A stretch of DNA of 64,000 bases. Source: Shigella phage JK55. The number at the start of each line of letters is the position of its first letter. Position 1 is the first letter of the stretch. The notes beneath the pieces were generated by a model. The model was not told where the DNA came from and made no database searches. It saw only the letters and a program-made list of their open reading frames with translations. The DNA lies in the sequence record MK962758, one strand, 5' to 3'. This document shows positions 7,692-29,316 of this stretch, piece after piece. A program made the position numbers and the translations under genes.

Positions 7692-7760
7692 GAAACTCTG
7701 TAGAATATTCACAATAGACTAAGCCTTTCTTATCTGGTAAATTTTTCAGGTAAGGAGGGC

Positions 7761-7943
7761 TTTTTCATTTCAGGATTGTGCAGGTATATTTCTATAGAGA
7801 AATCTGTAGAGAAAATTTTGAACTCCAAAGAGAAAATTCATTTTCAAACTGTGCAGGTAATCTCCAAAGGGCTTTTTCATTTTCAAAACGTGCAGACCCC
7901 GCTCAGGTCGGGCAAGAAAAATCATTTTAGAATTGTGCAGGTA
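7761..7943 (+). repeat. four direct copies of about 22-bp motif TTCATTT(T)CAnnA..GTGCAGGTA in intergenic region
   Basis: Copies near 7765-7786, 7838-7860, 7876-7896, 7922-7943; a fifth partial copy follows the terminator at 5380-5394. Confidence 0.6.
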
Positions 7944-7967
7944 GGTTTTTATAGAGAGCCAGACCAA

Positions 7968-7998
7968 CCCCTCTCCCCCTCTTACTCCCCCTCTCCCC
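7968..7998 (-). other. G-quadruplex-forming motif on minus strand (GGGG-AGA-GGGGG-AGTAAGA-GGGGG-AGA-GGGG); C-rich i-motif strand on plus
   Basis: Plus strand reads CCCCTCTCCCCCTCTTACTCCCCCTCTCCCC; four C/G tracts of 4-5 with loops of 3, 7, 3 nt in an otherwise AT-rich intergenic region. Confidence 0.6.
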
Positions 7999-8119
7999 AA
8001 AAGTCAAGAGAAAAATTTGTAGCGGATTGAAAAATAATTCTTGATTTGTGTTCTGTTTTGTGGTAGTCGTGTGCGCCCGTTTCATTACAGTTTTGCCAAA
8101 GATATTTTTAAAATTTTTC

Positions 8120-8179
8120 TTGACTCTTTGAACGGGGTTATCTAGTATTTGCATCAACGGGGAGGGAATGACCTTCCCC
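8120..8179 (+). promoter_or_regulatory. type-A early cassette: promoter (TTGACT-17-TAGTAT) plus 5'UTR hairpin GGGGAGGGAATGACCTTCCCC and GGAG RBS
   Basis: -35 at 8120-8125, -10 at 8143-8148, hairpin 8159-8179, conserved tail ACTAAATAAAGTCCTAAACTGGAGATTCAAAAATG to start 8212. Confidence 0.6.
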
Positions 8180-8211
8180 ACTAAATAAAGTCCTAAACTG
8201 GAGATTCAAAA

Positions 8212-8592
8212 ATGAAATATCGTGCGCCTAAATTCATCAACAAAGACAACTTTCGTAGCGTACTGGAGAAGTCACTTGATGAAAATTTCAAAGGTAATGT
8301 GATTGTTGTTCACTCGTTCAATTTTAAGTATGATATCAACGGGAATAAAATCAACCATTACACGGCAACCATGTTAGATGGCACTCTTTCAAGTGAAAAA
8401 ACAATTCTACATGCACTTGCTGGGCGTGGAAAAAACCTGATAAGATGCGATAAGAGACGTTATCAGGGTGGCGCATATGGTTACGATGACGCTATTTATC
8501 ATCTTGAAAATATGGGCTATCAAGTAGAAAAAGCTGGAGTATCACAAATCATCGGGAGCGATGGTTATGTAACAATCTTCAAAATTAACTGA
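8212..8592 (+). CDS. hypothetical small early protein
   Basis: ORF directly behind type-A cassette with GGAG RBS 8 nt upstream. Confidence 0.6.
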   Translation: MKYRAPKFINKDNFRSVLEKSLDENFKGNVIVVHSFNFKYDINGNKINHYTATMLDGTLSSEKTILHALAGRGKNLIRCDKRRYQGGAYGYDDAIYHLENMGYQVEKAGVSQIIGSDGYVTIFKIN

Positions 8593-8600
8593 TAAAGTAC

Positions 8601-8636
8601 TTTACAAGGGGCTTATAGTTCGATAAAGTAAGCCCC
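8601..8636 (+). promoter_or_regulatory. type-B early cassette: TTTACA-17-TAAAGT promoter-like element overlapping hairpin GGGGCTTA...TAAGCCCC
   Basis: -35-like TTTACA 8601-8606, -10-like TAAAGT 8624-8629, 8-bp stem hairpin 8608-8636, then AGATAAAGAGCTTTACCACT..GGAGA..ATG. Confidence 0.5.
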
Positions 8637-8681
8637 AGATAAAGAGCTTTACCACTCAATCCTAAATTGGAGAACTAAAAA

Positions 8682-8939
8682 ATGGCTATTATCAAAAACG
8701 TTGTAGTTACTGCAAAGACTCGCGATGACGCTCGCATTATGGCTAAAAAGTTATGCGGAAAAGTGGTTGACAACGGAAAACAATCTGCTGTAAGATGGGG
8801 CGTAAAGGCTGATAAACAACTAACCTTAAAACGCAGTTCAAACAACCTTTTTAAAGGTGTAAAATCACTCGGTAAAGTGAACGTCTTTACCAAAAAAGGC
8901 TATAAAATGCACTTATCATTAACTGGCAATTTAATCTGA
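8682..8939 (+). CDS. hypothetical small early protein (basic, 85 aa)
   Basis: ORF behind type-B cassette. Confidence 0.55.
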   Translation: MAIIKNVVVTAKTRDDARIMAKKLCGKVVDNGKQSAVRWGVKADKQLTLKRSSNNLFKGVKSLGKVNVFTKKGYKMHLSLTGNLI

Positions 8940-8947
8940 TAAAGTAC

Positions 8948-8983
8948 TTTACAGGGGGCTTAAAAGTTGATATCTTAAGCCCC
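8948..8983 (+). promoter_or_regulatory. type-B early cassette (TTTACA-17-TATCTT; hairpin GGGGCTTAA...TTAAGCCCC)
   Basis: Same architecture as 8601-8636 with 9-bp stem. Confidence 0.5.
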
Positions 8984-9027
8984 AGATAAAGAGCTTTACC
9001 ACTAAATCCTAAACTGGAGATTCAAAA

Positions 9028-9540
9028 ATGAAAACTGTAGACGCTACCTTTGAAGTTGTAAAAGAAAAATTCACCATTATTTATGAAGCTGTCAATTGCT
9101 TTGAAGCAAGCCATAATCTCGATAATTGGGAGTTTACAAACGACCATCAAGGCGGTGTGACTGTTAAAAATCCTAACTGTCAGCATAATGATTTTAAATA
9201 TGCAATCCCTTTGCATTACAGCCTTAAACAGCTTTCAAGTGACTATGCAAAACAAGGCCGCGATAATCCATCGAAAGAGGCTTACACGAGCTTACAGAAA
9301 GAACTAGAAAGAGATTTAGAGGCTTCAGAGTATAACCTTGCCGCGAAAGTTGTGGATGCAAACGGTAACACGGTTTTAGAAAGTTTTTATCTTGGTTATG
9401 CTTTCGATTGGTGCTATCGTGACGGCGATGATTTAGAGGATAGACTAAAAGAAGAGGTGAACAACGCAGACGCAGAATCTGAAGTATTAGAACGTTTGGA
9501 ATCATTGAAAGACTCAGTGATGAATATCTTTAAGAACTAA
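9028..9540 (+). CDS. hypothetical early protein (170 aa, acidic C-terminus)
   Basis: ORF behind type-B cassette. Confidence 0.55.
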   Translation: MKTVDATFEVVKEKFTIIYEAVNCFEASHNLDNWEFTNDHQGGVTVKNPNCQHNDFKYAIPLHYSLKQLSSDYAKQGRDNPSKEAYTSLQKELERDLEASEYNLAAKVVDANGNTVLESFYLGYAFDWCYRDGDDLEDRLKEEVNNADAESEVLERLESLKDSVMNIFKN

Positions 9541-9550
9541 ATAGATTTCT

Positions 9551-9590
9551 TTACACGGGGTTATCAAGCTGGTAGGATAGCCCCAGATAA
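9551..9590 (+). promoter_or_regulatory. type-B-variant early cassette (TTTACA-17-TAGGAT; hairpin GGGGTTATC...ATAGCCCC)
   Basis: Variant hairpin sequence but same positions relative to ATG at 9633. Confidence 0.4.
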
Positions 9591-9632
9591 ATAGATTTAT
9601 CAAATAAAGCCCTTAAACTAGGAGATTCTAAA

Positions 9633-9929
9633 ATGAAATTATCAAATCAAGTGCGTGAAAATTTGAGCAAATTACTCAACAAAATTGATTTCATTGAAAC
9701 ATCAAGGAATAGTCATGATGTTATGGAATGGTTACACGGCAAAATAAAAGGTCGTCGTGTAGTGATTTGCTTATGGAATAGTTGCAGGGAGTATAAAAAA
9801 CCTGTATTGCAAGTCAATATTTACGATGATACTTTTAAAAGCCCTGTAAAGTCTAAAAGCGATTTATTAGAATCTTATGAGATAACTGTAAGTGGCAAAG
9901 TATCACGTAAAGAGGAAACACCATGTTAA
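9633..9929 (+). CDS. hypothetical small early protein
   Basis: ORF behind cassette; 3' end overlaps next ORF. Confidence 0.5.
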   Translation: MKLSNQVRENLSKLLNKIDFIETSRNSHDVMEWLHGKIKGRRVVICLWNSCREYKKPVLQVNIYDDTFKSPVKSKSDLLESYEITVSGKVSRKEETPC

Positions 9930-10255
9930 TGACTGGTATCACTGCAATCATTGCCATTTTCGCGCTATATAAGGCATATAAAGCCTATAATCTAGCAAAT
10001 AAGGCAATCACACAGCAGGTTAGCAATAACCTTGTAGAAAGCTTTCTAGGACGTCTCAGTGATGAGCAAATAAAGCGGCTAGAGATGAGCTTCAGATATA
10101 AAGCGAAAACCTATCAGATAAGTGACATCTTCAAAGATGATTTTCAGCTTGTCGATGATTATAATGCTCTGATAAATGCTTTAAATATCAGTGACTTAAA
10201 AGACTACTACGCTGTAATTGTTCAAGAACTGAGCAAACGAAAAAATTCCTCTTGA
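9923..10255 (+). CDS. hypothetical small membrane protein (N-terminal TM helix)
   Basis: Hydrophobic segment LMTGITAIIAIFALY; start overlaps previous gene; no own cassette. Confidence 0.45.
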   Translation: MLMTGITAIIAIFALYKAYKAYNLANKAITQQVSNNLVESFLGRLSDEQIKRLEMSFRYKAKTYQISDIFKDDFQLVDDYNALINALNISDLKDYYAVIVQELSKRKNSS

Positions 10256-10310
10256 TTTTGGTTTTTAAAGCAAGTAAATTACTAATCAACGGGGAGGAAA
10301 TGACCTCCCC
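10252..10310 (+). promoter_or_regulatory. type-A early cassette (TTGATT-17-TAAATT; hairpin GGGGAGGAAATGACCTCCCC)
   Basis: -35 10252-10257, -10 10275-10280, hairpin 10291-10310 with compensatory stem change relative to other copies. Confidence 0.55.
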
Positions 10311-10343
10311 ACTACATAAAACCCTTAAACTAGGAGATTCAAA

Positions 10344-10616
10344 ATGTATACTACTAACAACGGTCGCACCTTAAACGTAACCCTGCGCCACTATGTGAAC
10401 GGTGTAATGCACTTCGAGGATTTACAAGCCGAACAACATATTCTGAATTGGCAACTTGCAGGGCTGCAAAAAACTGCTACAGGATACGGTAAAAAGATTC
10501 CAACTAGTTGGAAAGTATACTACGAAGGCCGTTTGCGTAGAATTTATCAAGATGTACACAGCAATAGCGCAACAAGTTACATCATGGTAAAAGGTAAAAA
10601 GCTGCATTTAGTATAA
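10344..10616 (+). CDS. hypothetical small early protein
   Basis: ORF behind type-A cassette. Confidence 0.55.
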   Translation: MYTTNNGRTLNVTLRHYVNGVMHFEDLQAEQHILNWQLAGLQKTATGYGKKIPTSWKVYYEGRLRRIYQDVHSNSATSYIMVKGKKLHLV

Positions 10617-10621
10617 AGTAC

Positions 10622-10657
10622 TTTACAAGGGGCTTATAGTTCGATAAAGTAAGCCCC
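10622..10657 (+). promoter_or_regulatory. type-B early cassette (identical hairpin to 8608-8636)
   Basis: AAGTACTTTACAAGGGGCTTATAGTTCGATAAAGTAAGCCCCAGATAAAGAGC repeated. Confidence 0.5.
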
Positions 10658-10702
10658 AGATAAAGAGCTTTACCACTAAATCCTAAATTGGAGAACTTAA
10701 AA

Positions 10703-11107
10703 ATGGCTATTAATAACCGTGAATTATCAATTTTAAAAGCACGTTTGACCGTTAACCGGATTAATGTCATCACGTCATCAGCACCAGATGAAACACTGCA
10801 AAACATTATTGGGAAGATTCAAAGTGTTATCTTAGACGTTGAAAGCGTAAAAAATTCATTGGCTGACGTTGCAGCAGGTATCACACTAGACGGTGCGCAA
10901 TATGAAATGTCCGACATGTTAGGCAAATCTAAGGTAATGAATAAAGAGTTAGATTTGAAAATGTTCCGATTTGCTGTTAAAGTGTGGCTATCTGTCGAGT
11001 ATGATGCTAACTTTGCAATCGCTGACTTTTTCGCCACTTGGTTGCAGCGTAATTTGACTAATCATGACTTCCGCGATATCTGTGATGCAATTTATGCAGA
11101 ACTCTAA
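10703..11107 (+). CDS. hypothetical early protein
   Basis: Start chosen at ATG 10703 (conserved GGAGAACTTAAAAATG context) rather than the track ATG at 10688, which lies within the RBS region. Confidence 0.5.
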   Translation: MAINNRELSILKARLTVNRINVITSSAPDETLQNIIGKIQSVILDVESVKNSLADVAAGITLDGAQYEMSDMLGKSKVMNKELDLKMFRFAVKVWLSVEYDANFAIADFFATWLQRNLTNHDFRDICDAIYAEL

Positions 11108-11116
11108 AAAATTTTG

Positions 11117-11176
11117 TTGACACTGGTTTTTAGATAGATTAAATTACACATCAACGGGGAGGGAATGACCTTCCCC
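11117..11176 (+). promoter_or_regulatory. type-A early cassette (TTGACA-17-TAAATT; hairpin GGGGAGGGAATGACCTTCCCC)
   Basis: -35 11117-11122, -10 11140-11145, hairpin 11156-11176. Confidence 0.6.
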
Positions 11177-11208
11177 ACTAAATAAAGTCCTAAACTGGAG
11201 ATTCAAAA

Positions 11209-11412
11209 ATGGCTATTATTAATGGTTTAACCATTGAAACTACACACATCAAAGATATCAAAGTTGGTGATATAGTCCTTTCCCACGGCGTAGAAAAAAC
11301 TGTCACTGCAAAGGATATCAAAGAGGATTCTTTCATGGGTAGGACTCTCTTCGGTGATTCTTATTGCTTAGGCTATCTTGCAGTTTTAAAAGTTGTCAAA
11401 AATAACAAATAA
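11209..11412 (+). CDS. hypothetical small early protein (67 aa)
   Basis: ORF behind type-A cassette. Confidence 0.5.
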   Translation: MAIINGLTIETTHIKDIKVGDIVLSHGVEKTVTAKDIKEDSFMGRTLFGDSYCLGYLAVLKVVKNNK

Positions 11413-11416
11413 AGTA

Positions 11417-11452
11417 CTTTACAAGGGGCTTAAAAGTTGATAACTTAAGCCT
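11417..11452 (+). promoter_or_regulatory. type-B early cassette (hairpin GGGGCTTAA...TTAAGCCTC)
   Basis: Same architecture; one stem mismatch. Confidence 0.45.
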
Positions 11453-11497
11453 CAGATAAAGAGCTTTACCACTAAATCCTAAACTGGAGATTCAAAA

Positions 11498-12040
11498 ATG
11501 AAATGTTTTCACGGAACTACTCAAGAAAATTTCCTCAACCTGATTAATAACGGTGATAAACCATCAGGCGCATGGAATTGTTCGGATATGGACGGCAATT
11601 TTTACGTGTATCCAGAAAATAAAATCTATGGCGACGATGAGGAAGAGATAACATCAGAAGGCATCCAGCAAGCTCTAGGCAATGCCACTATCACCGCAGC
11701 TTTTCAGATGAAGACTCAAAATATTGTTATCTTAGAACTCGATATTCCAGAGGATGAGCTGAATGACGATTATTATTGTGATAATATGTCGAGTGTAGCA
11801 AGTTTTACAGAGTACTTTGATGTAAATTGGATTAAAAAGGTCTATACAACAGAGTTTAACGCTATGTATTCACCTTTTTGTCTTCCTTCATTGGATAACC
11901 CAAATTTAAACTATCTTGATGAGTCTCTGGAGCTTCTTGCTAAAAGTGTTCAACAGTCGGACAGTATTCAGGTTTTTTGTGACATCATGGACACGCTGAC
12001 AGGAAACATCACAGAAGAGGATTTAAAGAGCTTTTTCTAA
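11498..12040 (+). CDS. hypothetical early protein (180 aa, acidic)
   Basis: ORF behind type-B cassette. Confidence 0.55.
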   Translation: MKCFHGTTQENFLNLINNGDKPSGAWNCSDMDGNFYVYPENKIYGDDEEEITSEGIQQALGNATITAAFQMKTQNIVILELDIPEDELNDDYYCDNMSSVASFTEYFDVNWIKKVYTTEFNAMYSPFCLPSLDNPNLNYLDESLELLAKSVQQSDSIQVFCDIMDTLTGNITEEDLKSFF

Positions 12041-12072
12041 AAACCTACACAATCACCTTATAAACACTGATT

Positions 12073-12093
12073 AGCCCCTTGTAGGGGCTTTTA
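12073..12093 (+). terminator. rho-independent terminator (AGCCCCT-TGT-AGGGGCT + TTTT)
   Basis: 7-bp GC-rich stem, short loop, T-run. Confidence 0.6.
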
Positions 12094-12106
12094 GAGGGCT
12101 TAAATC

Positions 12107-12340
12107 ATGCTAACAACCGTTTATCTCATCCTCTCAATTTGTAATGGCCATTCATGTGACTTTAAAGGGCTTGAAGAGTTTACAGGGAGTAAAGAAAATG
12201 CTATTCAAGTTTGCCAGATAGCAAGGCAAGACTATCCCGCCAGTGATGATATACAATGCTACTTTAAGACAGAAGATGAAGAAGGAATCTATTTCGACAG
12301 CGTTGATGGTCAATATGAAATTATCATTGAAAAAGACTAG
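12107..12340 (+). CDS. hypothetical small protein (77 aa)
   Basis: ORF with AGAGGG RBS; the only gene in the array without a cassette. Confidence 0.45.
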   Translation: MLTTVYLILSICNGHSCDFKGLEEFTGSKENAIQVCQIARQDYPASDDIQCYFKTEDEEGIYFDSVDGQYEIIIEKD

Positions 12341-12397
12341 ACAAGCCTGATAAAAGTCTGTAAATTGTCAATCAACGGGGAGGGAATGACCTTCCCC
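12338..12397 (+). promoter_or_regulatory. type-A early cassette (TAGACA-17-TAAATT; hairpin)
   Basis: -35 12338-12343, -10 12361-12366, hairpin 12377-12397. Confidence 0.55.
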
Positions 12398-12432
12398 ACT
12401 AAATAAAGTCCTTAAACTAGGAGATTCCAAAA

Positions 12433-12774
12433 ATGGCTTATGTAACCGTAATTACCGATAAAGCTGGCGCATCTTGGTCAACTCAGGTTAGTGATAAGAT
12501 GTCGCCTATGCAGTGCCTAAAATACTTTGAACAGTGGAACAAAGGCGAGGACACAAGCCCCTTTCAAGTGATGCAGATTATCCATGTAGACAACGAAGGG
12601 AAGAAAACAACTCTGAATAGTGAGTACTATGCAAGCCGTTTTGAAACGAGAAGTAAAACAATGAAGCTTCTACGTGAATCCGGTTATACCCATATCGCCG
12701 CGTTAATCTGGGATGACCTTCTAAAAAGTCAACGTATCAGCTATGTAAAGCCTGAAAAAATATTCATCAGTTAA
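12433..12774 (+). CDS. hypothetical early protein (113 aa)
   Basis: ORF behind type-A cassette. Confidence 0.55.
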   Translation: MAYVTVITDKAGASWSTQVSDKMSPMQCLKYFEQWNKGEDTSPFQVMQIIHVDNEGKKTTLNSEYYASRFETRSKTMKLLRESGYTHIAALIWDDLLKSQRISYVKPEKIFIS

Positions 12775-12903
12775 TCAATAACTTACAAAAAACTTTTAAA
12801 AAAGTGTTGACAATACCCCTTGACATTGGTAACTTTGTTCGAGGGGGTTTATCTAAAAGGGATTCACTTAAAAGATTCTTTATAGATAAGCTTAAAAAAT
12901 TGC

Positions 12904-12960
12904 TTGCAATCAGCTATCAAAACAAGTAAATTACTAATCAACGGGAGGGATAACCTCCCC
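12904..12960 (+). promoter_or_regulatory. type-A early cassette (TTGCAA-17-TAAATT; hairpin GGGAGGGATAACCTCCC)
   Basis: -35 12904-12909, -10 12927-12932, hairpin 12943-12960 with covarying stem. Confidence 0.5.
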
Positions 12961-12993
12961 ACTAAATAAAATCCTTAAACTAGGAGAGTCAAA

Positions 12994-13524
12994 ATGAACA
13001 AGTTTAAAGCTATCAACTTCATTCGTTCAAATGCTGTAATGTCAAAACCTGTAAAAGACACATACGAATTTCGCTGCAATGGGGTACACTTTGCAACCAT
13101 CACTAAGTCAGAAAACGGGGCTTATTACATTCATCGCCGTAATGTTTCTACTGTTGTAGTCTCTCACTTTATGCAAGCTGTAGCGGAATTATTACCGTTA
13201 TTCTTAGAGATTTACTTAGATGAGTGCAAAAACGTTCGTAACCACGTTAAAAACCTTTTAAACGGTTATAAAATGGCTTATGAACGTTCTATCAAGTCCT
13301 TAAACAAGTTTTATAAAGCCCCTGTAAATACTGTTTCAATGGCTTACAGTGTAAGCGGTGAGTTGGTTAGCCTCTTCGAAGTAGAAGAAATTGAACTATA
13401 TGACTCACGTCCTAGCGGTTACTCTAAGACACTGGGAGAAGGTTTATCTTTCAATATCAAGAACTTAGAAAAAACTTTAAAAGATATTGAAAAAGATATT
13501 GACGAAACAATCAAAAGTCTGTAA
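12994..13524 (+). CDS. hypothetical early protein (176 aa)
   Basis: ORF behind type-A cassette. Confidence 0.55.
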   Translation: MNKFKAINFIRSNAVMSKPVKDTYEFRCNGVHFATITKSENGAYYIHRRNVSTVVVSHFMQAVAELLPLFLEIYLDECKNVRNHVKNLLNGYKMAYERSIKSLNKFYKAPVNTVSMAYSVSGELVSLFEVEEIELYDSRPSGYSKTLGEGLSFNIKNLEKTLKDIEKDIDETIKSL

Positions 13525-13558
13525 ATTGTCAATCAACGGGGAGGGAATGACCTTCCCC
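13499..13558 (+). promoter_or_regulatory. type-A early cassette (TTGACG-17-TAAATT; hairpin); promoter lies inside 3' end of upstream gene
   Basis: -35 13499-13504, -10 13522-13527, hairpin 13538-13558. Confidence 0.55.
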
Positions 13559-13603
13559 GCTAAACAAAACCCTTAATCAACTTCCTAAACTGGAGATTCT
13601 AAA

Positions 13604-13852
13604 ATGGCTACTATCCGCGCAACTGTTAACGAATTTGGCTTCTACTCTCTGGACGTTAAATTTGACCTTGTAGGTACTGATAACGCCTTTGAAATGGTGA
13701 AAGGCCTTATCAGCCAGACCATCAGTGACTACAACCCCTCTGATGAATTCTGGAAAGAAACAAAACAAGAAGCCCTTAAAGATGGTTACACTTATCACTA
13801 TTGGGGCGAAAAAATTGTCTCCCTGTACTACGACAAAAAAGGCACTAACTAA
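13604..13852 (+). CDS. hypothetical small early protein (82 aa)
   Basis: ORF behind type-A cassette; last gene before the non-coding region. Confidence 0.55.
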   Translation: MATIRATVNEFGFYSLDVKFDLVGTDNAFEMVKGLISQTISDYNPSDEFWKETKQEALKDGYTYHYWGEKIVSLYYDKKGTN

Positions 13853-13890
13853 ACGCCGCAACGGGGCTAAATAGCCCCAGATACCTTTAC

Positions 13891-13941
13891 AGCCCCTTTC
13901 CCATATAGATTCGATAGAGTCTATCTCATAGGGGCTTTTTT
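13891..13941 (+). terminator. terminator-like hairpin (AGCCCCT...AGGGGCT + TTTTT) closing the plus-strand early array
   Basis: 7-bp stem with long structured loop then TTTTT; preceded by smaller hairpin GGGGCTAAATAGCCCC at 13864-13879. Confidence 0.5.
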
Positions 13942-14288
13942 ACGTCTTATCAAATCCCTTATACAACCCTTTCCCTTTCCTTTCCAGAATCTTATCAGAC
14001 CTTAAAAGCAATAACTCTATAGCTTACTCTATAGCCTTTTATTAAATCAACTTAAATATAAGCCCATAACCCGAAAGGGAAGGGCAACCATTTAAACGCT
14101 CTATAAAGCCCTATAACGGCCTTATTAACCTAACTTAAGGGATTGCATTACCTCACCCTTAAAAGCCCTTTATAAAGCTTCCCAGAGCCTTAAAAGAATC
14201 TTATAAGGGTATAAGCTTTATTATCTCGTTAGCTATCTTGTGAATAACTAAAAAGGGCTTGTTAGTGTCTTAAAAGTATGTTATAGGG

Positions 14289-14347
14289 GCTTAAAAGTTA
14301 CTTTGAAGTAGCTTAAAAGTTACTTTGAAGTAGCTTAAAAGTTACGT
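14289..14347. repeat. short tandem repeat, about 2.6 copies of 22-bp unit GCTTAAAAGTTACTTTGAAGTA
   Basis: Read directly: ...GGGGCTTAAAAGTTACTTTGAAGTAGCTTAAAAGTTACTTTGAAGTAGCTTAAAAGTTACG. Confidence 0.8.
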
Positions 14348-14389
14348 AAATGCTAGCCCCCTTAACAATTTCTTAACAATCCCTACATA

Positions 14390-15051
14390 GTTATGCTTTT
14401 AAGGCACTTGTTAGCAACTTGTTAGCCCCTTGTTAAATCTCTGTTAAGACCACGTAAAAGCCTTGTAAGAGTCTTTGACATAGCCTTTAAAGCTTCTGTA
14501 AAGCCTTATAAAAAGGTGTCTGTATAGTTGGGCTGTAGATACTAGGAAGAGACTTAAAAGAGCTTACAAGGAGCTATAGAGAGCTTTTAAGAGGGCTATT
14601 TAGAGATTCACTAGGGATTGGTAACAATACCAATTAAGAGGGAAAGGGAACGATAAGAAAAGAGTAGTGACCATGTTAACAACTTGTTAAAAAGATTAAA
14701 CACTTGTTAGGAACTTGTTAATTATCTTAACAAAATAACTCTTAACATTTAACTACTTAGCTCTTGTTAGTCATCTGTTAAGATTCTGTAAAGCCTATTC
14801 AGCAACTGTTAAGATTCTGTTACATCCTTGTTAGTTCTGTTAAGAATCTGTTAAGGCCTTTGAAGATTTGTTAAGAGCTTGAGAGAGTTGTTAAGAGATT
14901 GTTAAGGATATTTTAAAATTTTGCAAAGTACTTGTAAGGGAGTTGTTAAGGGCTACCAAGCAGATATACATCCTAATCAGATATTTTTCAGTTCCTTCAA
15001 AGACCCTAAAAAATGACTTGATAGCTCTATTTTATAAAAATTTTAAGATTC
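14390..15051. repeat. 662-bp tandem direct repeat, copy 1 (iteron-rich)
   Basis: Sequence from 14390 repeats at offset 662; all line-by-line spot checks identical. Confidence 0.85.
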
Positions 15052-15713
15052 GTTATGCTTTTAAGGCACTTGTTAGCAACTTGTTAGCCCCTTGTTAAAT
15101 CTCTGTTAAGACCACGTAAAAGCCTTGTAAGAGTCTTTGACATAGCCTTTAAAGCTTCTGTAAAGCCTTATAAAAAGGTGTCTGTATAGTTGGGCTGTAG
15201 ATACTAGGAAGAGACTTAAAAGAGCTTACAAGGAGCTATAGAGAGCTTTTAAGAGGGCTATTTAGAGATTCACTAGGGATTGGTAACAATACCAATTAAG
15301 AGGGAAAGGGAACGATAAGAAAAGAGTAGTGACCATGTTAACAACTTGTTAAAAAGATTAAACACTTGTTAGGAACTTGTTAATTATCTTAACAAAATAA
15401 CTCTTAACATTTAACTACTTAGCTCTTGTTAGTCATCTGTTAAGATTCTGTAAAGCCTATTCAGCAACTGTTAAGATTCTGTTACATCCTTGTTAGTTCT
15501 GTTAAGAATCTGTTAAGGCCTTTGAAGATTTGTTAAGAGCTTGAGAGAGTTGTTAAGAGATTGTTAAGGATATTTTAAAATTTTGCAAAGTACTTGTAAG
15601 GGAGTTGTTAAGGGCTACCAAGCAGATATACATCCTAATCAGATATTTTTCAGTTCCTTCAAAGACCCTAAAAAATGACTTGATAGCTCTATTTTATAAA
15701 AATTTTAAGATTC
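15052..15713. repeat. 662-bp tandem direct repeat, copy 2
   Basis: Identical to 14390-15051 in every segment compared. Confidence 0.85.
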
Positions 15714-16218
15714 TGAATAATTACCTATACAGTCTTTTAAAAATACAGGTAGAAACAGGCTTATAAGATACCTTGTTAGTACCGTGTTAGACCTTGTGAG
15801 ATAAGGTCTGTAAAGATATTCCTGTTAAGTTTGTTAAAACAGTCTATATAGAGGCTTAGTAATACCTAGTGAACACCTATAGAGAGTATCATAGCTAACC
15901 TAGAGATTAAGAGGTGTATAGGAGCTTCTAAGAGGGTGTAGAGAGATGGTTAAGGTGATTGTATAGGTTGTTAAGAAGGCTTGTTAGAAGAGTGTTTAGA
16001 AGGCTTGTTAGAGGGTTATTTAGAAGGGCTATACAGATGGGCTATTAAGACCACTAGATAGTTACTAAGATACTATATAGTACTATATAACTATATAGAG
16101 AGTAAGATTAAGAAGGTTGTTAAGAAGGATAGATATTTTGTTCACATATGATGGTGACCCAGAGGTTGGGACAACCGATAAAATTTTATAAAAAATATAA
16201 ATTTCGTAAATTTTACTC

Positions 16219-25489: not shown

Positions 25490-25566
25490 CTCTGTTTAGC
25501 TCAGCTTGGTAGAGCGTTCCGTTTGGGGCGGTAAGGCCGGAGGTTCAAGTCCTCCAACAGAGACCA
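25490..25566 (+). tRNA. tRNA-Pro (anticodon TGG)
   Basis: Hand-folded cloverleaf: 7-bp acceptor CTCTGTT/AACAGAG, D-arm GCTC..GAGC, anticodon loop TTTGGGG, T-arm GGAGGTTCAAGTCCTCC, CCA encoded. Confidence 0.7.
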
Positions 25567-25573
25567 AATTAAT

Positions 25574-25651
25574 GTTCCAGTAGACAAAATGGTATAGTCA
25601 CCACTCTTTCAAAGTGGATATCTGAGGGTTCAAATCCCTTCTGGAACGCCA
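25574..25651 (+). tRNA. tRNA-Glu (anticodon TTC)
   Basis: Acceptor GTTCCAG/CTGGAAC, anticodon stem CCACT/AGTGG with loop CTTTCAA, T-arm GAGGGTTCAAATCCCTT, CCA encoded. Confidence 0.6.
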
Positions 25652-25738
25652 GTTTTGACAGAAGACCAATTACAGCAAACTGAATCTACTCATCTGACAC
25701 GAAATCGGACAAAGAAGATATTTGGTCTGGTCATTAAG
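25652..25738 (+). ncRNA. repeated structured element, copy a (ACAGAAGACCAATTACAGCAA ... TTGGTCTGG)
   Basis: Shares 5' motif and covarying closing stem with copies b, c, d. Confidence 0.4.
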
Positions 25739-25741
25739 AAT

Positions 25742-25818
25742 TGCGGGTATAGAGAAAGGGCGTCTCACATGTCTCATTAGCATGGTATCGGCAGGTTCGA
25801 CTCCTGCACCCGCCTCCA
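25742..25818 (+). tRNA. tRNA-Met or Ile2 (anticodon CAT)
   Basis: Anticodon loop CTCATTA, T-arm GCAGGTTCGACTCCTGC, acceptor about 6/7 bp, CCA encoded. Confidence 0.55.
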
Positions 25819-25819
25819 A

Positions 25820-25892
25820 ATTTACAGAAGACCGTTTACAGCAATACTTATTAAATTTTTAGCGGAAAAATTGAAAGATGCGGTCTGGTAAT
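25820..25892 (+). ncRNA. repeated structured element, copy b (ACAGAAGACCGTTTACAGCAA ... CGGTCTGG)
   Basis: As above; closing stem AGACCG/CGGTCT. Confidence 0.4.
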
Positions 25893-25901
25893 ACTAAACA
25901 T

Positions 25902-25975
25902 GGTTAGGAAGCACATAAGGTATGTGCGGTCGCCTGTTAAGCGAATGGCACAGGGTTCGAATCCCTGACTAACCG
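25902..25975 (+). tRNA. tRNA-Asn (anticodon GTT)
   Basis: D-arm GCAC..GTGC, anticodon loop CTGTTAA, T-arm CAGGGTTCGAATCCCTG; no CCA encoded. Confidence 0.55.
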
Positions 25976-25986
25976 CAAAATTTAAA

Positions 25987-26075
25987 TGTGTCGTTATCCC
26001 GTAGATGGTAGCGGTGGGGACTGTAAATCCCTTGTCATTGAGACTCGGTAGGTTCGACTCCTACACGGCACACCA
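25987..26075 (+). tRNA. tRNA-Tyr (anticodon GTA), long variable arm
   Basis: Anticodon loop CTGTAAA, about 15-nt variable arm, T-arm GTAGGTTCGACTCCTAC, CCA encoded. Confidence 0.6.
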
Positions 26076-26080
26076 ATAAA

Positions 26081-26158
26081 GGTTATGTAGTTTAATTTGG
26101 TTAAAATACTCCCCTGTCACGGGAGATGATGAGGGTTCAAATCCCTTCGTAACCGCCA
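26081..26158 (+). tRNA. tRNA-Asp (anticodon GTC)
   Basis: Anticodon stem CTCCC/GGGAG with loop CTGTCAC, T-arm GAGGGTTCAAATCCCTT, CCA encoded. Confidence 0.6.
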
Positions 26159-26216
26159 ATTTTGAGAGGGCTATTTAGCCCCTCCCTTAAAGAGTTCTTA
26201 CGAGTATTCTTTAAAG

Positions 26217-26296
26217 GAGTAGAAGACCAAATACAGCAAGAATGTATGATATTTTCAAGCCAATTCAATTTTGAAAAAATTTAAAACTTGGTCTGG
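26217..26296 (+). ncRNA. repeated structured element, copy c (AGAAGACCAAATACAGCAA ... TTGGTCTGG)
   Basis: As above; closing stem AGACCAA/TTGGTCT. Confidence 0.4.
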
Positions 26297-26306
26297 CTCA
26301 ACAAAT

Positions 26307-26450
26307 TTACAGAAGACCGTTTACAGCAAAACTTAAACAATCTATTTCTCGGTAAAGAAAAGGCGAAGGTTCGATTCCTTCACTCGGCAGAGGTCGAGTT
26401 GGTGTAATGGTAGCACTTAAGATGATAAACAACGGTCTGGTAATTATCTT
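26307..26450 (+). ncRNA. repeated structured element, copy d, expanded; contains tRNA-like T-arm (GAAGGTTCGATTCCTTC) and D-arm-like segment
   Basis: Closing stem AGACCGTT/AACGGTCT; internal T-loop motif and TGGTGTAATGGTAGCAC D-arm-like segment, but no complete cloverleaf found. Confidence 0.35.
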
Positions 26451-26585
26451 TGTAGATAAGTTATTAAGCTTACCTGTGAGTATGCGACCACAAAGGGTGA
26501 AAGGGTAAATTCTAGATTTAAACCCAAAAAGTCACATCGCTACAGACCTTAAGCAAGTCTGGGTAGCTTATCTACAAAGATAATT
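26441..26585 (+). repeat. 19-bp perfect inverted repeat (TAATTATCTTTGTAGATAAG / CTTATCTACAAAGATAATT) enclosing 105 bp
   Basis: Arms at 26441-26460 and 26566-26584; candidate RNase III-type processing stem or miniature inverted-repeat element. Confidence 0.6.
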
Positions 26586-26589
26586 TAAT

Positions 26590-26665
26590 GGAAGTGTAGC
26601 AGAATGGTGATGCGGCAGACTTTTAATCTGACAGGCGATGGGTTCGAATCCCTCCACTTCTACCA
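26590..26665 (+). tRNA. tRNA-Lys (anticodon TTT)
   Basis: Acceptor GGAAGTG/CACTTCT, anticodon loop CTTTTAA, T-loop TTCGAAT with weak T-stem, CCA encoded. Confidence 0.5.
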
Positions 26666-26669
26666 AAAT

Positions 26670-26746
26670 GGTTCAGTCGCAGATAAGGTAATGCAAGGGT
26701 CTCATAAGCCCTATGAATGTGGGTTCGAATCCCATCTGAACCTCCA
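26670..26746 (+). tRNA. tRNA-Met or Ile2 (anticodon CAT), second copy
   Basis: Acceptor GGTTCAG/CTGAACC, anticodon stem AGGGT/GCCCT loop CTCATAA, T-arm GTGGGTTCGAATCCCAT, CCA encoded. Confidence 0.6.
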
Positions 26747-26748
26747 AT

Positions 26749-26823
26749 TGTGGGTTAGCATAAATGGTAATGCAAACGGCTGATAACCGTTAGAAGAGGG
26801 TTCGATACCCTCACCTACAACCA
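26749..26823 (+). tRNA. tRNA-Ile (anticodon GAT)
   Basis: Anticodon stem AACGG/CCGTT loop CTGATAA, T-arm GAGGGTTCGATACCCTC, CCA encoded. Confidence 0.6.
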
Positions 26824-26838
26824 AATTCAATAAAGTTG

Positions 26839-26867
26839 TTGACATTGAGATGTGACTACTTTATAGT
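26839..26867 (+). promoter_or_regulatory. sigma70-like promoter inside tRNA cluster (TTGACA-17-TATAGT)
   Basis: -35 26839-26844, -10 26862-26867; about 200 nt of non-tRNA sequence follows before the next tRNA. Confidence 0.55.
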
Positions 26868-27070
26868 ACCCTTAGTTTTCGTTGCGTAGCGTCTATTTTG
26901 CAAATTTAAAATAAATGCAAACGACAATGTTTTTCTGGCAGTAGCTTGATAGGCTAAACACCAGTGAGGTCTTCCAATCCCTCATCAAAGAATTTGGCGT
27001 ACTCGCCCACGGTATGATTAATAAGGTGGGCATCTTTAAGGGCTTTCTAAGAGAGTCTTTAAAGATTAAT

Positions 27071-27147
27071 GCACCCTTAGTTCAACTGGACAGAGCAAAT
27101 GACTTCTAATCATTGAGTTACAGGTTCGAATCCTGTAGGGTGCGCCA
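27071..27147 (+). tRNA. tRNA-Arg (anticodon TCT)
   Basis: Acceptor GCACCCT/AGGGTGC, anticodon stem AATGA/TCATT loop CTTCTAA, T-arm ACAGGTTCGAATCCTGT, CCA encoded. Confidence 0.65.
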
Positions 27148-27289
27148 ATTAGTTAGCAGATTACTTAGACGACCTAAGCGGGTCTTCCTGTAGGGAGGTG
27201 GTCTGTATCTCATGTTTTCCAGAACATGTAAATAATCTGAGAAGGGGCTTTACAGTGTTGAGATAATACGGTAAGTTTCGAATTATAGT

Positions 27290-27372
27290 ATGGGACGATG
27301 TTAAGACTCTAAGGCATGAGCAACGGCCTCCAAAACCGTTTCAAAGGGGTTCAACTCCTCCGTCCCATGCCA
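27290..27372 (+). tRNA. atypical tRNA-like gene (possible anticodon CCA in an enlarged 9-nt loop; isotype unresolved)
   Basis: Perfect acceptor ATGGGAC/GTCCCAT, T-arm AGGGGTTCAACTCCTCC, CCA encoded, but 83 nt long with about 7 extra nt between acceptor and anticodon arm; stem AACGG/CCGTT encloses CCTCCAAAA. Confidence 0.35.
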
Positions 27373-27385
27373 AAGTCTTATTAGT

Positions 27386-27473
27386 GGTAGGTAGCGGCTA
27401 ATGGTAGCCAAACTGTCTTGAAAACAGTTGCCACTGTAGAGATACGGTGAGGGTTCGACTCCTTTACTTACCG
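27386..27473 (+). tRNA. tRNA-Ser (anticodon TGA), long variable arm
   Basis: Anticodon stem ACTGT/ACAGT loop CTTGAAA, long variable arm, T-arm GAGGGTTCGACTCCTTT; no CCA encoded. Confidence 0.55.
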
Positions 27474-27730
27474 CCTAATAAGATTTAAAGCCAAGCTTCA
27501 TTCGGATGTTGCTTTGGTATCCCTCGTGTATTGTCGTACACACTAATAAAGCACCTAGTAGGTGTCACGGAGAAGAGATAATATCAAGCTCTCCAAAGGT
27601 TCTAGTCACCGGATTAAACAAGACTATGCAAAGACCTTTTTAGGTCTTTTTAGAGGGCTTCTAAGGTTATTACAGCTTGTTGTGGAACCTTGTTGCTTAG
27701 GTTCTTAGAAGTTCTCTAAAAAGGTTTAAT

Positions 27731-27808
27731 GGGAGATTGACGGTAATTGGTAAACCTATCTCGCTTAGAACGAGATGTTTGAGGGTTCGAATCCCTTGTC
27801 TCCTACCA
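27731..27808 (+). tRNA. tRNA with anticodon TAG (Leu by code) but short variable arm
   Basis: Anticodon stem TCTCG/CGAGA loop CTTAGAA, T-arm GAGGGTTCGAATCCCTT, CCA encoded; class-I length. Confidence 0.45.
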
Positions 27809-27815
27809 AATTAAT

Positions 27816-27891
27816 GCAGGTGTAGCAAAATGGTTATGCGGCTGACTCTTAATCAGTAAGACGATGGGTTCAATTCCCTCCACCTGTACCA
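27816..27891 (+). tRNA. tRNA-Lys (anticodon CTT)
   Basis: Acceptor GCAGGTG/CACCTGT, anticodon stem GCTGA/TCAGT loop CTCTTAA, T-loop TTCAATT, CCA encoded; paralog of tRNA-Lys(TTT). Confidence 0.5.
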
Positions 27892-27897
27892 AACAAT

Positions 27898-27973
27898 GGG
27901 GTCATAGTTTATATGGTTAAAATTCGAGTTTTGCAAACTTGGGAACTGAGTTCAATTCTCAGTGACTCCACCA
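27898..27973 (+). tRNA. tRNA-Ala (anticodon TGC)
   Basis: Anticodon stem CGAGT/ACTTG loop TTTGCAA, T-arm CTGAGTTCAATTCTCAG, CCA encoded. Confidence 0.5.
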
Positions 27974-27979
27974 ATTAGT

Positions 27980-28054
27980 GCATCCATAGTTTAAACGGGA
28001 AAATTACAGTCTTCCAAACTGAGGTTGAGGGTTCGATTCCCTCTGGATGCTCCA
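27980..28054 (+). tRNA. tRNA-Gly (anticodon TCC)
   Basis: Perfect acceptor GCATCCA/TGGATGC, anticodon loop CTTCCAA, T-arm GAGGGTTCGATTCCCTC, CCA encoded. Confidence 0.6.
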
Positions 28055-28060
28055 AACAAT

Positions 28061-28137
28061 GCTGCTTTCGTATAATTGGCTATTACACATCCCTTGTAAG
28101 GATGGAAATGCAGGTTCGAGTCCTGTGAGCAGCACCA
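28061..28137 (+). tRNA. tRNA-Thr (anticodon TGT)
   Basis: Anticodon stem CATCC/GGATG loop CTTGTAA, T-arm GCAGGTTCGAGTCCTGT, CCA encoded. Confidence 0.65.
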
Positions 28138-28140
28138 ATT

Positions 28141-28232
28141 CAGAGGTCAAGTGAAAGACCGCTGGTGTCAACTGAAGACCGTAACAAATTCCACGGAGTT
28201 GAGTTAGCGGCACAACTTCAGACCTCTTTCAC
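28141..28232 (+). ncRNA. structured non-tRNA element between tRNA-Thr and tRNA-Val (nested inverted repeats)
   Basis: AGAGGTC...GACCTCT outer inverted repeat, CTGAAG...CTTCAG inner repeat, contains the GAAGACCGT motif shared with copies a-d; no T-loop motif. Confidence 0.35.
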
Positions 28233-28307
28233 ACTCGCTTAGTTTATATGGTAAAACATCACCCTTACAAGATGAAGAAAAAGGTTCAAGTCCTTTAGTG
28301 AGTACCA
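28233..28307 (+). tRNA. tRNA-Val (anticodon TAC)
   Basis: Acceptor ACTCGCT/AGTGAGT, anticodon loop CTTACAA, T-arm AAGGTTCAAGTCCTT, CCA encoded. Confidence 0.5.
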
Positions 28308-28308
28308 T

Positions 28309-28386
28309 GTTCCAGTATCCCAATTGGCAGAGGATGCAAGCTCAAACCTTGTATTAGTGACGGTTCGAATCCGTCTTGGAACACCA
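28309..28386 (+). tRNA. tRNA with anticodon CAA (Leu by code) but short variable arm
   Basis: Acceptor GTTCCAG/TTGGAAC, anticodon stem GCAAG/CTTGT loop CTCAAAC, T-arm GACGGTTCGAATCCGTC, CCA encoded. Confidence 0.45.
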
Positions 28387-28405
28387 ATTTTAAGAGGCTA
28401 TTTAG

Positions 28406-28963
28406 ATGAGATATTTGAAGTATGCTTCATGGATTTTCTTAGCTTTACTAGAACCATTTGCAGCAACCCTAGCAGTCATCTTAGCACCTTTCGTAGTTCC
28501 ATTCTACAGTGAGAAGAAAGGGCATCTACCTTTTGGATTCAGATGGATGGAGACCTATGACAACCCGATTGATGGTGATAAAGGCCACGTTGAGAGATGG
28601 GCTAAGATTAGAAAGATTGGCAAGCTCGGTGTTTATATGCAGAGAGTTGGATGGCTCTGGAGAAACAAAGCTTATAACTTCTCTTACCATGTATTAGGAA
28701 GAGATGTAAAAGATGTTACTAAGTGGAAAGGTAATATCAACGTAAGTTCTGACCCTGAAGATAATCAGACAGGTTATCTCCTAATGTGGAACAACAATGC
28801 TTGGGGATTATTCGCTTTTATTCCGTCAATTAAAATCTTTGGTAAACAGTTTTACTGGAGAATTTATGTTGGATGGAAACTAAAAAGTGTTGTCCCAGAA
28901 GAAAGAGCATTCTCAAGGGAAAGAGTTATGTTGGCATTCTTTATTCATCCACTGAGAAAGTAA
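28406..28963 (+). CDS. hypothetical membrane protein embedded in tRNA cluster
   Basis: N-terminal hydrophobic segments (IFLALLEPFAATLAVILAPFVVPF); AAGAGG RBS 9 nt upstream. Confidence 0.55.
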   Translation: MRYLKYASWIFLALLEPFAATLAVILAPFVVPFYSEKKGHLPFGFRWMETYDNPIDGDKGHVERWAKIRKIGKLGVYMQRVGWLWRNKAYNFSYHVLGRDVKDVTKWKGNINVSSDPEDNQTGYLLMWNNNAWGLFAFIPSIKIFGKQFYWRIYVGWKLKSVVPEERAFSRERVMLAFFIHPLRK

Positions 28964-28971
28964 AGATTTAA

Positions 28972-29047
28972 AGGGGATTAGTTTACAAGGTTAAAACCTC
29001 GGTCTTTGAAATCGAAGAAGTTGGTTCAATTCCAACATCCCCCGCCA
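28972..29047 (+). tRNA. tRNA-Gln (anticodon TTG)
   Basis: Anticodon stem TCGGT/ATCGA loop CTTTGAA, T-arm GTTGGTTCAATTCCAAC, CCA encoded. Confidence 0.55.
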
Positions 29048-29049
29048 AT

Positions 29050-29128
29050 GCTCCATTACTCCAATTGGCAGAGAGGCCAGACTTAAAATCTGTGTTATGT
29101 ATCGGTTCGAATCCGATATGGAGTACCA
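29050..29128 (+). tRNA. tRNA with anticodon TAA (Leu by code) but short variable arm
   Basis: Acceptor GCTCCAT/ATGGAGT, anticodon loop CTTAAAA, T-arm ATCGGTTCGAATCCGAT, CCA encoded; D-arm paralogous to the CAA tRNA. Confidence 0.45.
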
Positions 29129-29133
29129 AATTT

Positions 29134-29209
29134 AGCGGTATAGCATAACTGGCAATGCAGCAGTCTCTGAAGCTGTCTTATTAAGGTTCAAATCCTTATG
29201 CCGCTGCCA
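29134..29209 (+). tRNA. tRNA-Gln (anticodon CTG)
   Basis: Acceptor AGCGGTA/TGCCGCT, anticodon loop CTCTGAA, T-arm TAAGGTTCAAATCCTTA, CCA encoded. Confidence 0.5.
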
Positions 29210-29240
29210 CTTCTAAGGGTTCTTACGAGAGTCCTTAAAT

Positions 29241-29316
29241 GTGGCCTTATCATAAATGGTAATGACCCATGCTGTGAACATGGTCTATACGGGTTCAAAT
29301 CCCGTAGGTCACCCCA
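29241..29316 (+). tRNA. tRNA-His (anticodon GTG)
   Basis: Anticodon stem CCATG/CATGG loop CTGTGAA, T-arm ACGGGTTCAAATCCCGT, CCA encoded. Confidence 0.65.

Follow-up and report, generated by a model that had tools for sequence, protein, structure and literature searches.

Two kinds of described element come closest to the one treated here. The promoter-early stem-loop (PeSL) cassettes of T4-type phages (Arbiol et al. 2010, PMC2839356; Comeau et al. 2014, PMC4122927) are intergenic sequences of about 70–100 bp that occur in multiple copies, and each comprises a sigma-70-like early promoter, a polyG/polyC stem-loop that may occupy any of five positions and a Shine–Dalgarno (SD) sequence, followed by a small gene of unknown function. 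Recombination between copies shuffles the genes, and the stem-loop has been interpreted, and on one occasion tested, as terminating transcription that comes from upstream (PMC2839356). The second kind is found at the 5′ end of bacterial mRNAs: RNase E acts much more slowly on a base-paired than on an accessible 5′ end, and 5′-terminal stem-loops stabilise Escherichia coli mRNAs (reviewed in PMC3997798, citing Emory 1992 and Bouvet & Belasco 1992). In the leader of T7 gene 10, a stem-loop plus sequence rich in A/U upstream of the SD raise both mRNA abundance and expression (PMC6146998). The subject of this analysis is a short hairpin, termed type-A, that is repeated in the early region of Shigella phage JK55; the sequence analysed, referred to throughout as the window, is a stretch of 64,000 nucleotides (nt) from record MK962758.

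By sequence matches, the window belongs to a Felix O1-like phage (Felixounavirus). The type-A hairpin occurs there in six copies within 5.4 kb, each forming part of a cassette with the same order of components: AT-rich upstream sequence, a sigma-70 promoter, the motif ATCAAC, a hairpin made of a G-run and a C-run, an A-rich linker, a GGAG SD and the ATG of a small gene. These cassettes resemble PeSLs in having AT-rich sequence upstream of a sigma-70-like early promoter, a stable G-run/C-run stem-loop adjacent to it and the SD and start codon of a small gene, in being present in many copies in a variable early region and, on comparative evidence, in bounding the gains, losses and replacements of genes between relatives. 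They differ in where the stem-loop is placed. In PeSLs it is described as being upstream of initiation, whereas the type-A stem begins 10–11 nt past the −10 hexamer, beyond the predicted start, and so would form part of the cassette's own mRNA. The lineage is also different (Ounavirinae, not T4-type phages); no sequence similarity to PeSLs is claimed, and the cassettes are known here from sequence. A second class in the same block, the type-B cassettes, has its stem-loop upstream of the predicted start, which is the classic PeSL layout.

With the 5′ untranslated regions (UTRs) of ompA and papA and with the T7 gene 10 leader (GGGAGACCACAACGGUUUCCC), the type-A cassettes share a G/C-rich hairpin a few nt from the predicted 5′ end, an open A/U-rich leader and a strong SD. 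The likeness extends to a dependence on structure and not on sequence, as 27 arm pairs and loops of 3–9 nt are found here and control pairings are worse than native ones. The difference is that the type-A hairpin is not one gene's leader, but is repeated six times in a mobile cassette.

The reading that we favour, at about even confidence, is that the type-A hairpin is a 5′-terminal stem-loop that protects or insulates mRNA, carried inside mobile promoter/stem-loop/SD cassettes. Host RNA polymerase would start at the A of CAAC, and in each early mRNA the hairpin would form 3–4 nt from the 5′ end. There, a stable stem would mask the 5′ end from 5′-end-dependent decay (RppH, RNase E) and would keep the A-rich leader, with its strong SD, unstructured and free of upstream context. 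Selection would act on a stable stem at that place and not on a specific sequence, a structure-only role with which free loops and exchangeable arms agree. Recombination would spread cassettes and swap them between gene positions, as described for the PeSLs of T4-type phages. On this reading the type-A cassettes would best be filed with known kinds, as a 5′ stabilising stem-loop in a PeSL-like mobile cassette, and would represent no new kind of mechanism.

Position, fold and promoter context

The first-pass annotation of the window had placed hairpins with G-run and C-run arms at six sites, and all six are present with the arms that it gave, on the + strand only (table 1). A search of the 64 kb with a pattern for the hairpin returned seven matches, at these six sites, against none in 100 shuffles, and a covariance model (CM) run over the same 64 kb found exactly the six sites and no others. 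Whole-leader folding z-scores range from −2.6 to −3.8, and predicted stem stability ranges from −12.3 to −17.2 kcal/mol. The stem of copy 6 reaches 9 bp because of an A>G change just 3′ of the core stem; this copy is followed by a long linker of 27 nt, with the ATG at 13604.

Table 1. Coordinates of cassette components in the window, with the fold or source of each.
Feature	Position	Strand	Details
Cassette 1 promoter, TTGACT-17 nt-TAGTAT	8120–8148	+	Promoter scan, regular-expression scan
Type-A copy 1, GGGGAGGG-AATGA-CCTTCCCC	8159–8179	+	8 bp including one G.U; −15.2 kcal/mol; SD GGAG 8200–8203; ATG 8212
Cassette 3′ end (example), CC-TAAACT-GGAG	8191–8203	+	SD inside weak mini-hairpin of 3–4 bp (fold)
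Cassette 2 promoter, TTGATT-17 nt-TAAATT	10252–10280	+	Sequence reading, promoter parse
Type-A copy 2, GGGGAGG-AAATGA-CCTCCCC	10291–10310	+	7 perfect bp; −14.9 kcal/mol; ATG 10344
Cassette 3 promoter, TTGACA-17 nt-TAAATT	11117–11145	+	Promoter scan, regular-expression scan; equals the Felix O1 39-bp direct repeat (PMC3185647)
Type-A copy 3, same sequence as copy 1	11156–11176	+	−15.2 kcal/mol; ATG 11209
Cassette 4 promoter, TAGACA-17 nt-TAAATT	12338–12366	+	Promoter scan, regular-expression scan
Type-A copy 4, same sequence as copy 1	12377–12397	+	−15.2 kcal/mol; ATG 12433
Cassette 5 promoter, TTGCAA-17 nt-TAAATT	12904–12932	+	Sequence reading, promoter parse
Type-A copy 5, GGGAGG-GATAA-CCTCCC plus one unpaired C	12943–12960	+	6 bp; −12.3 kcal/mol; ATG 12994
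Cassette 6 promoter, TTGACG-17 nt-TAAATT	13499–13527	+	Promoter scan, regular-expression scan
Type-A copy 6	13537–13559	+	Copy-1 core at 13538–13558 plus C13537-G13559; 9 bp; −17.2 kcal/mol
Type-B cassette	8592–8691		Bipartite hairpin, about 60 nt
Type-B cassette	8939–9038		Bipartite hairpin, about 60 nt
Type-B cassette	9541–9632		Bipartite hairpin, about 60 nt
Type-B cassette	10613–10712		Bipartite hairpin, about 60 nt
Type-B cassette	11409–11508		Bipartite hairpin, about 60 nt

In all six copies a sigma-70-type promoter with a spacer of 17 nt precedes the stem, which starts 10 nt past the −10 hexamer, and the flanks upstream of the promoters consist of A/T-rich runs. For comparison we used about 50 Ounavirinae loci taken from GenBank phages and IMG/VR, covering the genera Mooglevirus and Suspvirus together with additional Felixounavirus contigs. 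Related cassettes have a common frame of promoter, ATCAAC and SD, within which the hairpins differ. A TTGnnn/TAnnnT promoter is matched in 199 of 203 cassettes other than type-B, the spacer is exactly 17 nt in 120 of 125 distinct leaders, and the aligned leaders all agree at T1, A2 and T6 of the −10 hexamer. The first paired base lies 10–11 nt past the −10 hexamer in 106 of the 113 distinct leaders that bear a hairpin. Unlike this near-fixed offset, the linker from hairpin to SD varies from 1 to 26 nt among the relatives. Judged from promoter geometry, the start site should be the A of CAAC in the near-invariant ATCAAC, 7–8 nt after the −10 hexamer, and the type-A stem should begin about 3–4 nt into the mRNA (2–4 unpaired nt by geometry).

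The literature on promoters, hairpins, transcriptomes and start sites of Felix O1-like phages yielded no description of the element, nor was any description found of PeSL-like cassettes in these phages. The Felix O1 genome paper gives the promoter section of the cassette as a 39-bp direct repeat and assigns it no function, found no promoters here and states that the control of temporal transcription is unknown (PMC3185647). Records in GenBank either carry no annotation for the cassettes or label one hairpin a minus-strand terminator; in the record of phage wV8 the cassettes are annotated only as direct repeats, DR_1 to DR_9.

The SD-bearing 3′ end is common to type-A and type-B cassettes, and its mini-hairpin exists in two forms: a short form, CC-TAAAYT-GG, and a long form, CCT-TAAAYT-AGG, in which a T and an A are added on opposite sides. 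Across the related loci L001–L122 there are 276 copies of the short form, 75 of the long form with CCT and two with TCT, and no mixed forms. The long form is a paired insertion that lengthens the mini-stem. A further inverted repeat lies in the long spacer before the promoter at 12904 (12806–12850), where two TTGACA motifs are accompanied by arms in reverse order, the C-run coming first (CCCCTTG...CGAGGGG). Promoters beside that long spacer in relatives (TTGCAA-17-TATAGT) are those with weak or missing 5′ hairpins.

Pairing in the window and among related phages

The stem differs between copies in the window, and the first-pass annotation had taken the differences to be compensatory base changes and their covariation to argue for selection on the hairpin itself. 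The variation does not bear this out, as no Watson–Crick pair is replaced by another at any position. A single A-U pair interrupts the G-run and C-run of the arms, which can pair in several registers; because they are built in this way, almost any variant still pairs. Three variants are present, with stems of 8–9, 7 and 6 bp. Relative to variant 1, variant 2 lacks one T of the 3′ arm and has the change G8>A. With only the T deleted, the fold reaches −16.3 kcal/mol, stabler than the parent, and G8 is then in the loop, so that one path from variant 1 to variant 2 contains no broken intermediate to be rescued. Variant 3 has lost one G, and its 3′ arm is still CCCC; this is an uncompensated shortening by one pair, from −16.0 to −12.3 kcal/mol. 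The statement that pairing is kept holds in that hairpins form at all six sites, but not in full, since variant 3 lost a pair without compensation. The four identical copies were plainly duplicated or gene-converted.

The same picture is given by this hairpin type at large. In an unfitted MAFFT alignment of 33 distinct variants, 89.1% of cells were paired against 88.8% in shuffled alignments, and the covariation score was 0.106 against 0.107; this null is a true negative for this hairpin type, made somewhat worse by register errors. The argument from covariation to selection therefore fails on the evidence of the window, with no covariation above chance either there or within this hairpin type. 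True two-sided changes are seen only once more distant relatives are included.

Among the relatives, 52 distinct hairpin cores, with 27 distinct arm pairs, occupy the equivalent offset. Their stems are 4–9 bp long, and their loops, of 3–9 nt, vary in sequence (AATGA, GATAA, GAAA, AAGCAA, AACA and others). We sorted them informally into groups I–IV. Group I, GGGGAGG/CCTYCCCC, includes the series GGGGAGG/CCTCCCC, GGGGAGG/CTTCCCC and GGGGAAG/CTTCCCC, in which one pair is G-C, G.U and A-U in turn. It also includes GGGAAGG/CCTTCCC (a register shift with seven perfect pairs), GGGGGG/CCTCCC (with G.U) and GGGGGA/TCCCCC. In group II the hairpin is GGG(G)C-AAGCAA-GCCC(C) or, in a variant with a U.G pair, GGGGT/GCCCC; group III has GGGA-AACA-TCCC and group IV has AAGC-AATCAA-GCTT. 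Pairing persists across these diverged arms. When arms are swapped among variants the mean ΔG changes from −10.2 to −6.9 ± 0.4 kcal/mol, and the native value was reached in none of 5000 permutations.

Alignments fitted to structure gave higher values than their shuffled counterparts, in controls that ignore relatedness (about 50 loci). A hand-fitted structural alignment has 98% standard pairs, two-sided change at 4–5 of nine positions and covariation of 0.48–0.51, against 0.25–0.27 when shuffled. With CM-fitted alignments, 94.4% of cells are paired against 92.8% shuffled, and covariation is 0.125 against 0.095 (0/500). For the divergent genera alone, the CM-fitted alignment has 95.1% paired against 85.8%, 19 cells changed on both sides against 4.6, and a covariation score of 0.114 against 0.044 (0/500), with slid-partner controls at 0.011–0.052. 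Compared with their own dinucleotide shuffles, representative leaders of groups I–IV give p values from about 0.0005 to 0.04, while the 5-bp GAGGG/CCTTC variant gives only about 0.11. The independent compensated events probably number four or five only. Covariation statistics that take in the relatives, as the first-pass annotation had proposed, are thus divided between the null of the unfitted alignment and values above shuffles in the structure-fitted ones. Its larger proposal, a selected and structured 5′-UTR RNA element, gains from the promoter context, from pairing across genera and from the fold of the sense strand, and little from the covariation first offered for it.

The type-A hairpin could also be without any function of its own, an inverted repeat carried along by duplication or gene conversion whose G- and C-runs pair in whatever register they fall. 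Several of the results above are what this would predict: four of the six copies in the window are identical, covariation is not above shuffles within this hairpin type, the variants are changes of run length and indels, several copies in relatives are degraded and some promoters are hairpin-free, and the cassettes clearly swap between sites. We consider it unlikely all the same, in view of complementarity kept in arms that are not simple runs (A-U, C-G, U.G and G.U pairs next to the outer G/C run; AAGC/GCTT; GGGGAAG/CTTCCCC). In addition, native pairing clearly beats the arm-swap and slid-partner controls, and broken variants are rare singletons, whereas variants containing G.U are abundant. 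Overall, pairing at this position appears to be favoured, yet dispensable.

Alternative roles of the hairpin

The level at which the hairpin acts, RNA or DNA, can be approached through its two strands. The commonest form contains a G.U pair on the sense strand, which is a C.A mismatch on the antisense strand, and the fold z-scores of copy 1 are −2.67 for sense and −0.56 for antisense. Among the distinct cores there are 23 G.U or U.G pairs and two A.C mismatches; counted by eye as separate mutational events, G.U and A.C stand at only about 5 to 3, so the asymmetry is one of abundance and not of events. Energies of the two strands are not decisive, the sense strand being the stabler in 28 of the 52 cores and the less stable in 24.

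An element acting at the level of DNA might be the operator palindrome of a dimeric repressor, a cruciform or recombination hot spot, or the terminator of an antisense transcript. The inverted repeat does adjoin a promoter, PeSL recombination junctions have been mapped in or near stem-loops (PMC2839356), and the wV8 GenBank record labels one copy a minus-strand terminator. We nevertheless give a DNA-level role almost no credence. Loop (3–9 nt) and arms (4–9) are both variable, in the majority form the palindrome is imperfect, with a mismatch that is a G.U pair on the sense strand only, and every copy is oriented with the genes, in a block that has no minus-strand genes. The dimeric-repressor operator was rejected outright, given a half-site spacing that varies from 3 to 9 nt and a majority form that is asymmetric (G.T against C.A). 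As for wV8 (L001, EU877232), the record annotates a type-A hairpin at 10109–10129 (record coordinates 13581–13601) as a rho-independent terminator on the complementary strand; this label is likely a mis-annotation.

The type-B cassettes and those of a more distant phage place the hairpin elsewhere. The 95-nt type-B leader at 8590–8684 folds with −25.1 kcal/mol (z = −4.3), and the inner stem of type-B, GGGGCTTA/TAAGCCCC, sits between a TTTACA −35 and a TAnnnT −10 hexamer; the cassette's own transcript would be predicted to start just past the hairpin and to have an unstructured 5′ end. The long interrupted helix of type-B resembles the early RNase III sites of T7. Erwinia phage phiEa21-4, a distant relative (L130, 9.7–16.3 kb), has analogous cassettes whose hairpins lie between the −35 and −10 hexamers or overlap the −10 hexamer; one such hairpin is GAGGGG-TTAAAAT-CCCCTC, with ATCAAC after it. 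The type-B-like stem there has GGTG.../...CACC in place of GGGG.../...CCCC, a two-sided change. Cassettes are also exchanged: a single orthologous gene has a type-A cassette in some phages and a type-B cassette in others, different hairpin groups occur at one site and, compared with the window, wV8 carries further units of a cassette and its gene (genes 23 and 26). From these comparisons the cassettes appear to behave like PeSLs.

With one G-run/C-run hairpin per cassette in every class, at places that differ relative to the promoter in type-B and phiEa21-4, the stem-loop might be a PeSL-type attenuator or 3′-end barrier. It would terminate part of the upstream read-through or, after cleavage in the A/U-rich leader, block 3′ exonucleases and so protect the upstream message, and its proximity to its own start would be incidental. 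The description of PeSLs, with five positional subclasses and 'polyG followed by polyC', matches, and one PeSL stem-loop cut lacZ expression like a strong terminator (PMC2839356). For the type-A hairpin we find this reading, the chief rival to ours, somewhat unlikely. No stem is followed by a U-tract, the next bases being ACUAAAUAAA or AACAAUCC, and none of the six was called in a terminator scan; genuine U-tract terminators nearby, as read from the sequence (12066–12091 and about 13,900–13,940), look different. An efficient terminator 25 nt past its own strong promoter would be self-defeating, and it is the offset from the −10 hexamer that is nearly fixed, the downstream linker being freely variable. 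An intrinsic terminator, which the hairpin resembles in being G/C-rich and intergenic, was rejected as such: the stem comes directly after a promoter and is followed by ACTAAATAAA, with no U-tract on the coding strand.

Placement just after early promoters also recalls lambda nut (boxB) and HK022 put, in which an RNA structure is likewise transcribed just past early promoters. The hairpin could be a binding site for an RNA-binding regulator or nuclease of phage or host, serving for instance to time early shut-off, or an antitermination RNA that acts in cis in the manner of nut or put. GGAG or GGAGG is found in its 5′ arm, and GNRA-like loops (GAAA, GAGA) in some relatives. Such a role seems to us quite improbable. 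In a comparison covering loop, arms and stem size, the type-A hairpin, unlike boxB and put, has no conserved loop or arm sequence; loops vary in both sequence and length (3–9 nt), and the arms differ between cassettes of one genome, so that no single sequence-specific protein could read all of them. Stems of 4–9 bp are far below the size of put RNA, and an Rfam 15 covariance-model search of 7900–14100 gave nothing relevant to the hairpins, with no family match even at E = 5. In a more elaborate form, which we hold to be very improbable, the hairpin would be an active cis-acting regulatory RNA: either a put-like structure making polymerase resistant to type-B hairpins and downstream stops, or a handle by which a phage factor shuts off the early cassettes jointly. 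If true, this would amount to a previously unknown RNA-based circuit for early-gene control on mobile cassettes in Felix O1-like phages.

Several more specific candidates were dropped. Mimicry of SD and anti-SD (5′ arm GGAGG, 3′ arm CCUCC), a GGAG target of the T4 RegB type and a GGA site for CsrA all fail as general explanations, as the variants GGGC/GCCC, GGGA/TCCC and AAGC/GCTT lack the motif. An RNase III site needs about two helical turns of double-stranded RNA; a site of the T7 early type was rejected, with stems of 6–9 bp in the window and 4–9 bp in relatives. Of the functions first suggested for the hairpin, stability is the best fit, RNase processing at an RNase III site being disfavoured by short stems and a sequence-specific regulator site by variable loops.

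A number of points weigh against the 5′-terminal protective stem-loop that we favour. The hairpins of type-B and phiEa21-4 lie outside their own transcripts, which suggests that a 5′ hairpin is no general need of these early mRNAs, and a feature common to all cassette classes could act on transcripts from upstream. Shared ancestry of the cassettes can account for their constant offset and for arms that run G first, then C. The fitted alignments are biased toward structure, in addition to being judged by shuffles blind to kinship, and a count of 3 of 7 pairs with two-sided change does not exceed what shuffles give (96/500 and 93/500). Some copies are broken or weakened: GGGAAGG/CCTCCCC has an A.C mismatch (−8.0 kcal/mol), GAGGT/GCCCC is left with −2.1 kcal/mol, GGGGAGGCAATAAACACCCC of wV8 with −7.5 kcal/mol and a chimera in L088 with −2.7 kcal/mol. 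A hairpin is missing altogether from five distinct leaders behind TTGCAA/TATAGT promoters. Nor does one accompany other strong promoter-like sites of the 64-kb window, which excludes the hairpin as a property of all this phage's promoters. The searchable literature contains no transcription start site or half-life data for Felix O1-like phages. Uncompensated stem-breaking changes in relatives had been named in the first-pass annotation as the observation that would contradict selection on the stem; uncompensated breaks and hairpin-free promoters do exist, and to that extent the claim is weakened.

Genomic setting and implications

The cassettes lie at 8.1–13.9 kb, in a block of about 13 small open reading frames (ORFs), every one on the + strand, which contains six type-A and five type-B cassettes. 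Bases 8000–14000 matched 257 phage records, the best being Felix O1-like myoviruses at 88–95% identity (garuso, momo, UAB_Phi87, wV8 and others), and all genes under this match carry hypothetical-protein annotation. The sole Rfam matches at gathering score form a block of 23 tRNAs at 25.4–30.3 kb, a gene cluster on the + strand at 25,490–30,320. The strong promoter-like sites near this cluster, with −10 hexamers ending at 25371 and 26867, are without a 5′ hairpin.

On its upstream side, the block is preceded by non-coding sequence (7760–8000) downstream of a strong terminator at 7721–7762, containing a repeat of about 40 bp, TCATTTTCAAACTGTGCAGGTA, in 3–4 copies, and a C-rich tract, CCCCTCTCCCCCTCTTACTCCCCCTCTCCCC, at about 7968–7998. 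The + strand early block is separated from the genes after it by an ORF-poor stretch of about 1.9 kb (about 13,950–15,800) that is dense in repeats with a period of about 11 nt (TCTGTTAAGAT, ACTTGTTAGCA) and includes 2.6 copies of a 22-nt unit (14289–14345); it could be an origin or packaging region. Positions 14390–15051 and 15052–15713 form a perfect head-to-tail duplication of 662 bp. It is probably a tandem assembly of the phage's direct terminal repeat, and the physical genome ends would then lie there; the terminal repeats of UAB_Phi87 are reported as 608 bp (PMC4837284).

Viewed as units of promoter, 5′ stem-loop and SD, the cassettes would provide a concrete map of early transcription for phages that are widely used in typing and biocontrol. 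As natural expression parts of small size they could also serve in E. coli and Salmonella. Their arrangement suggests that PeSL-like shuffling of small early genes extends beyond the T4-type phages.

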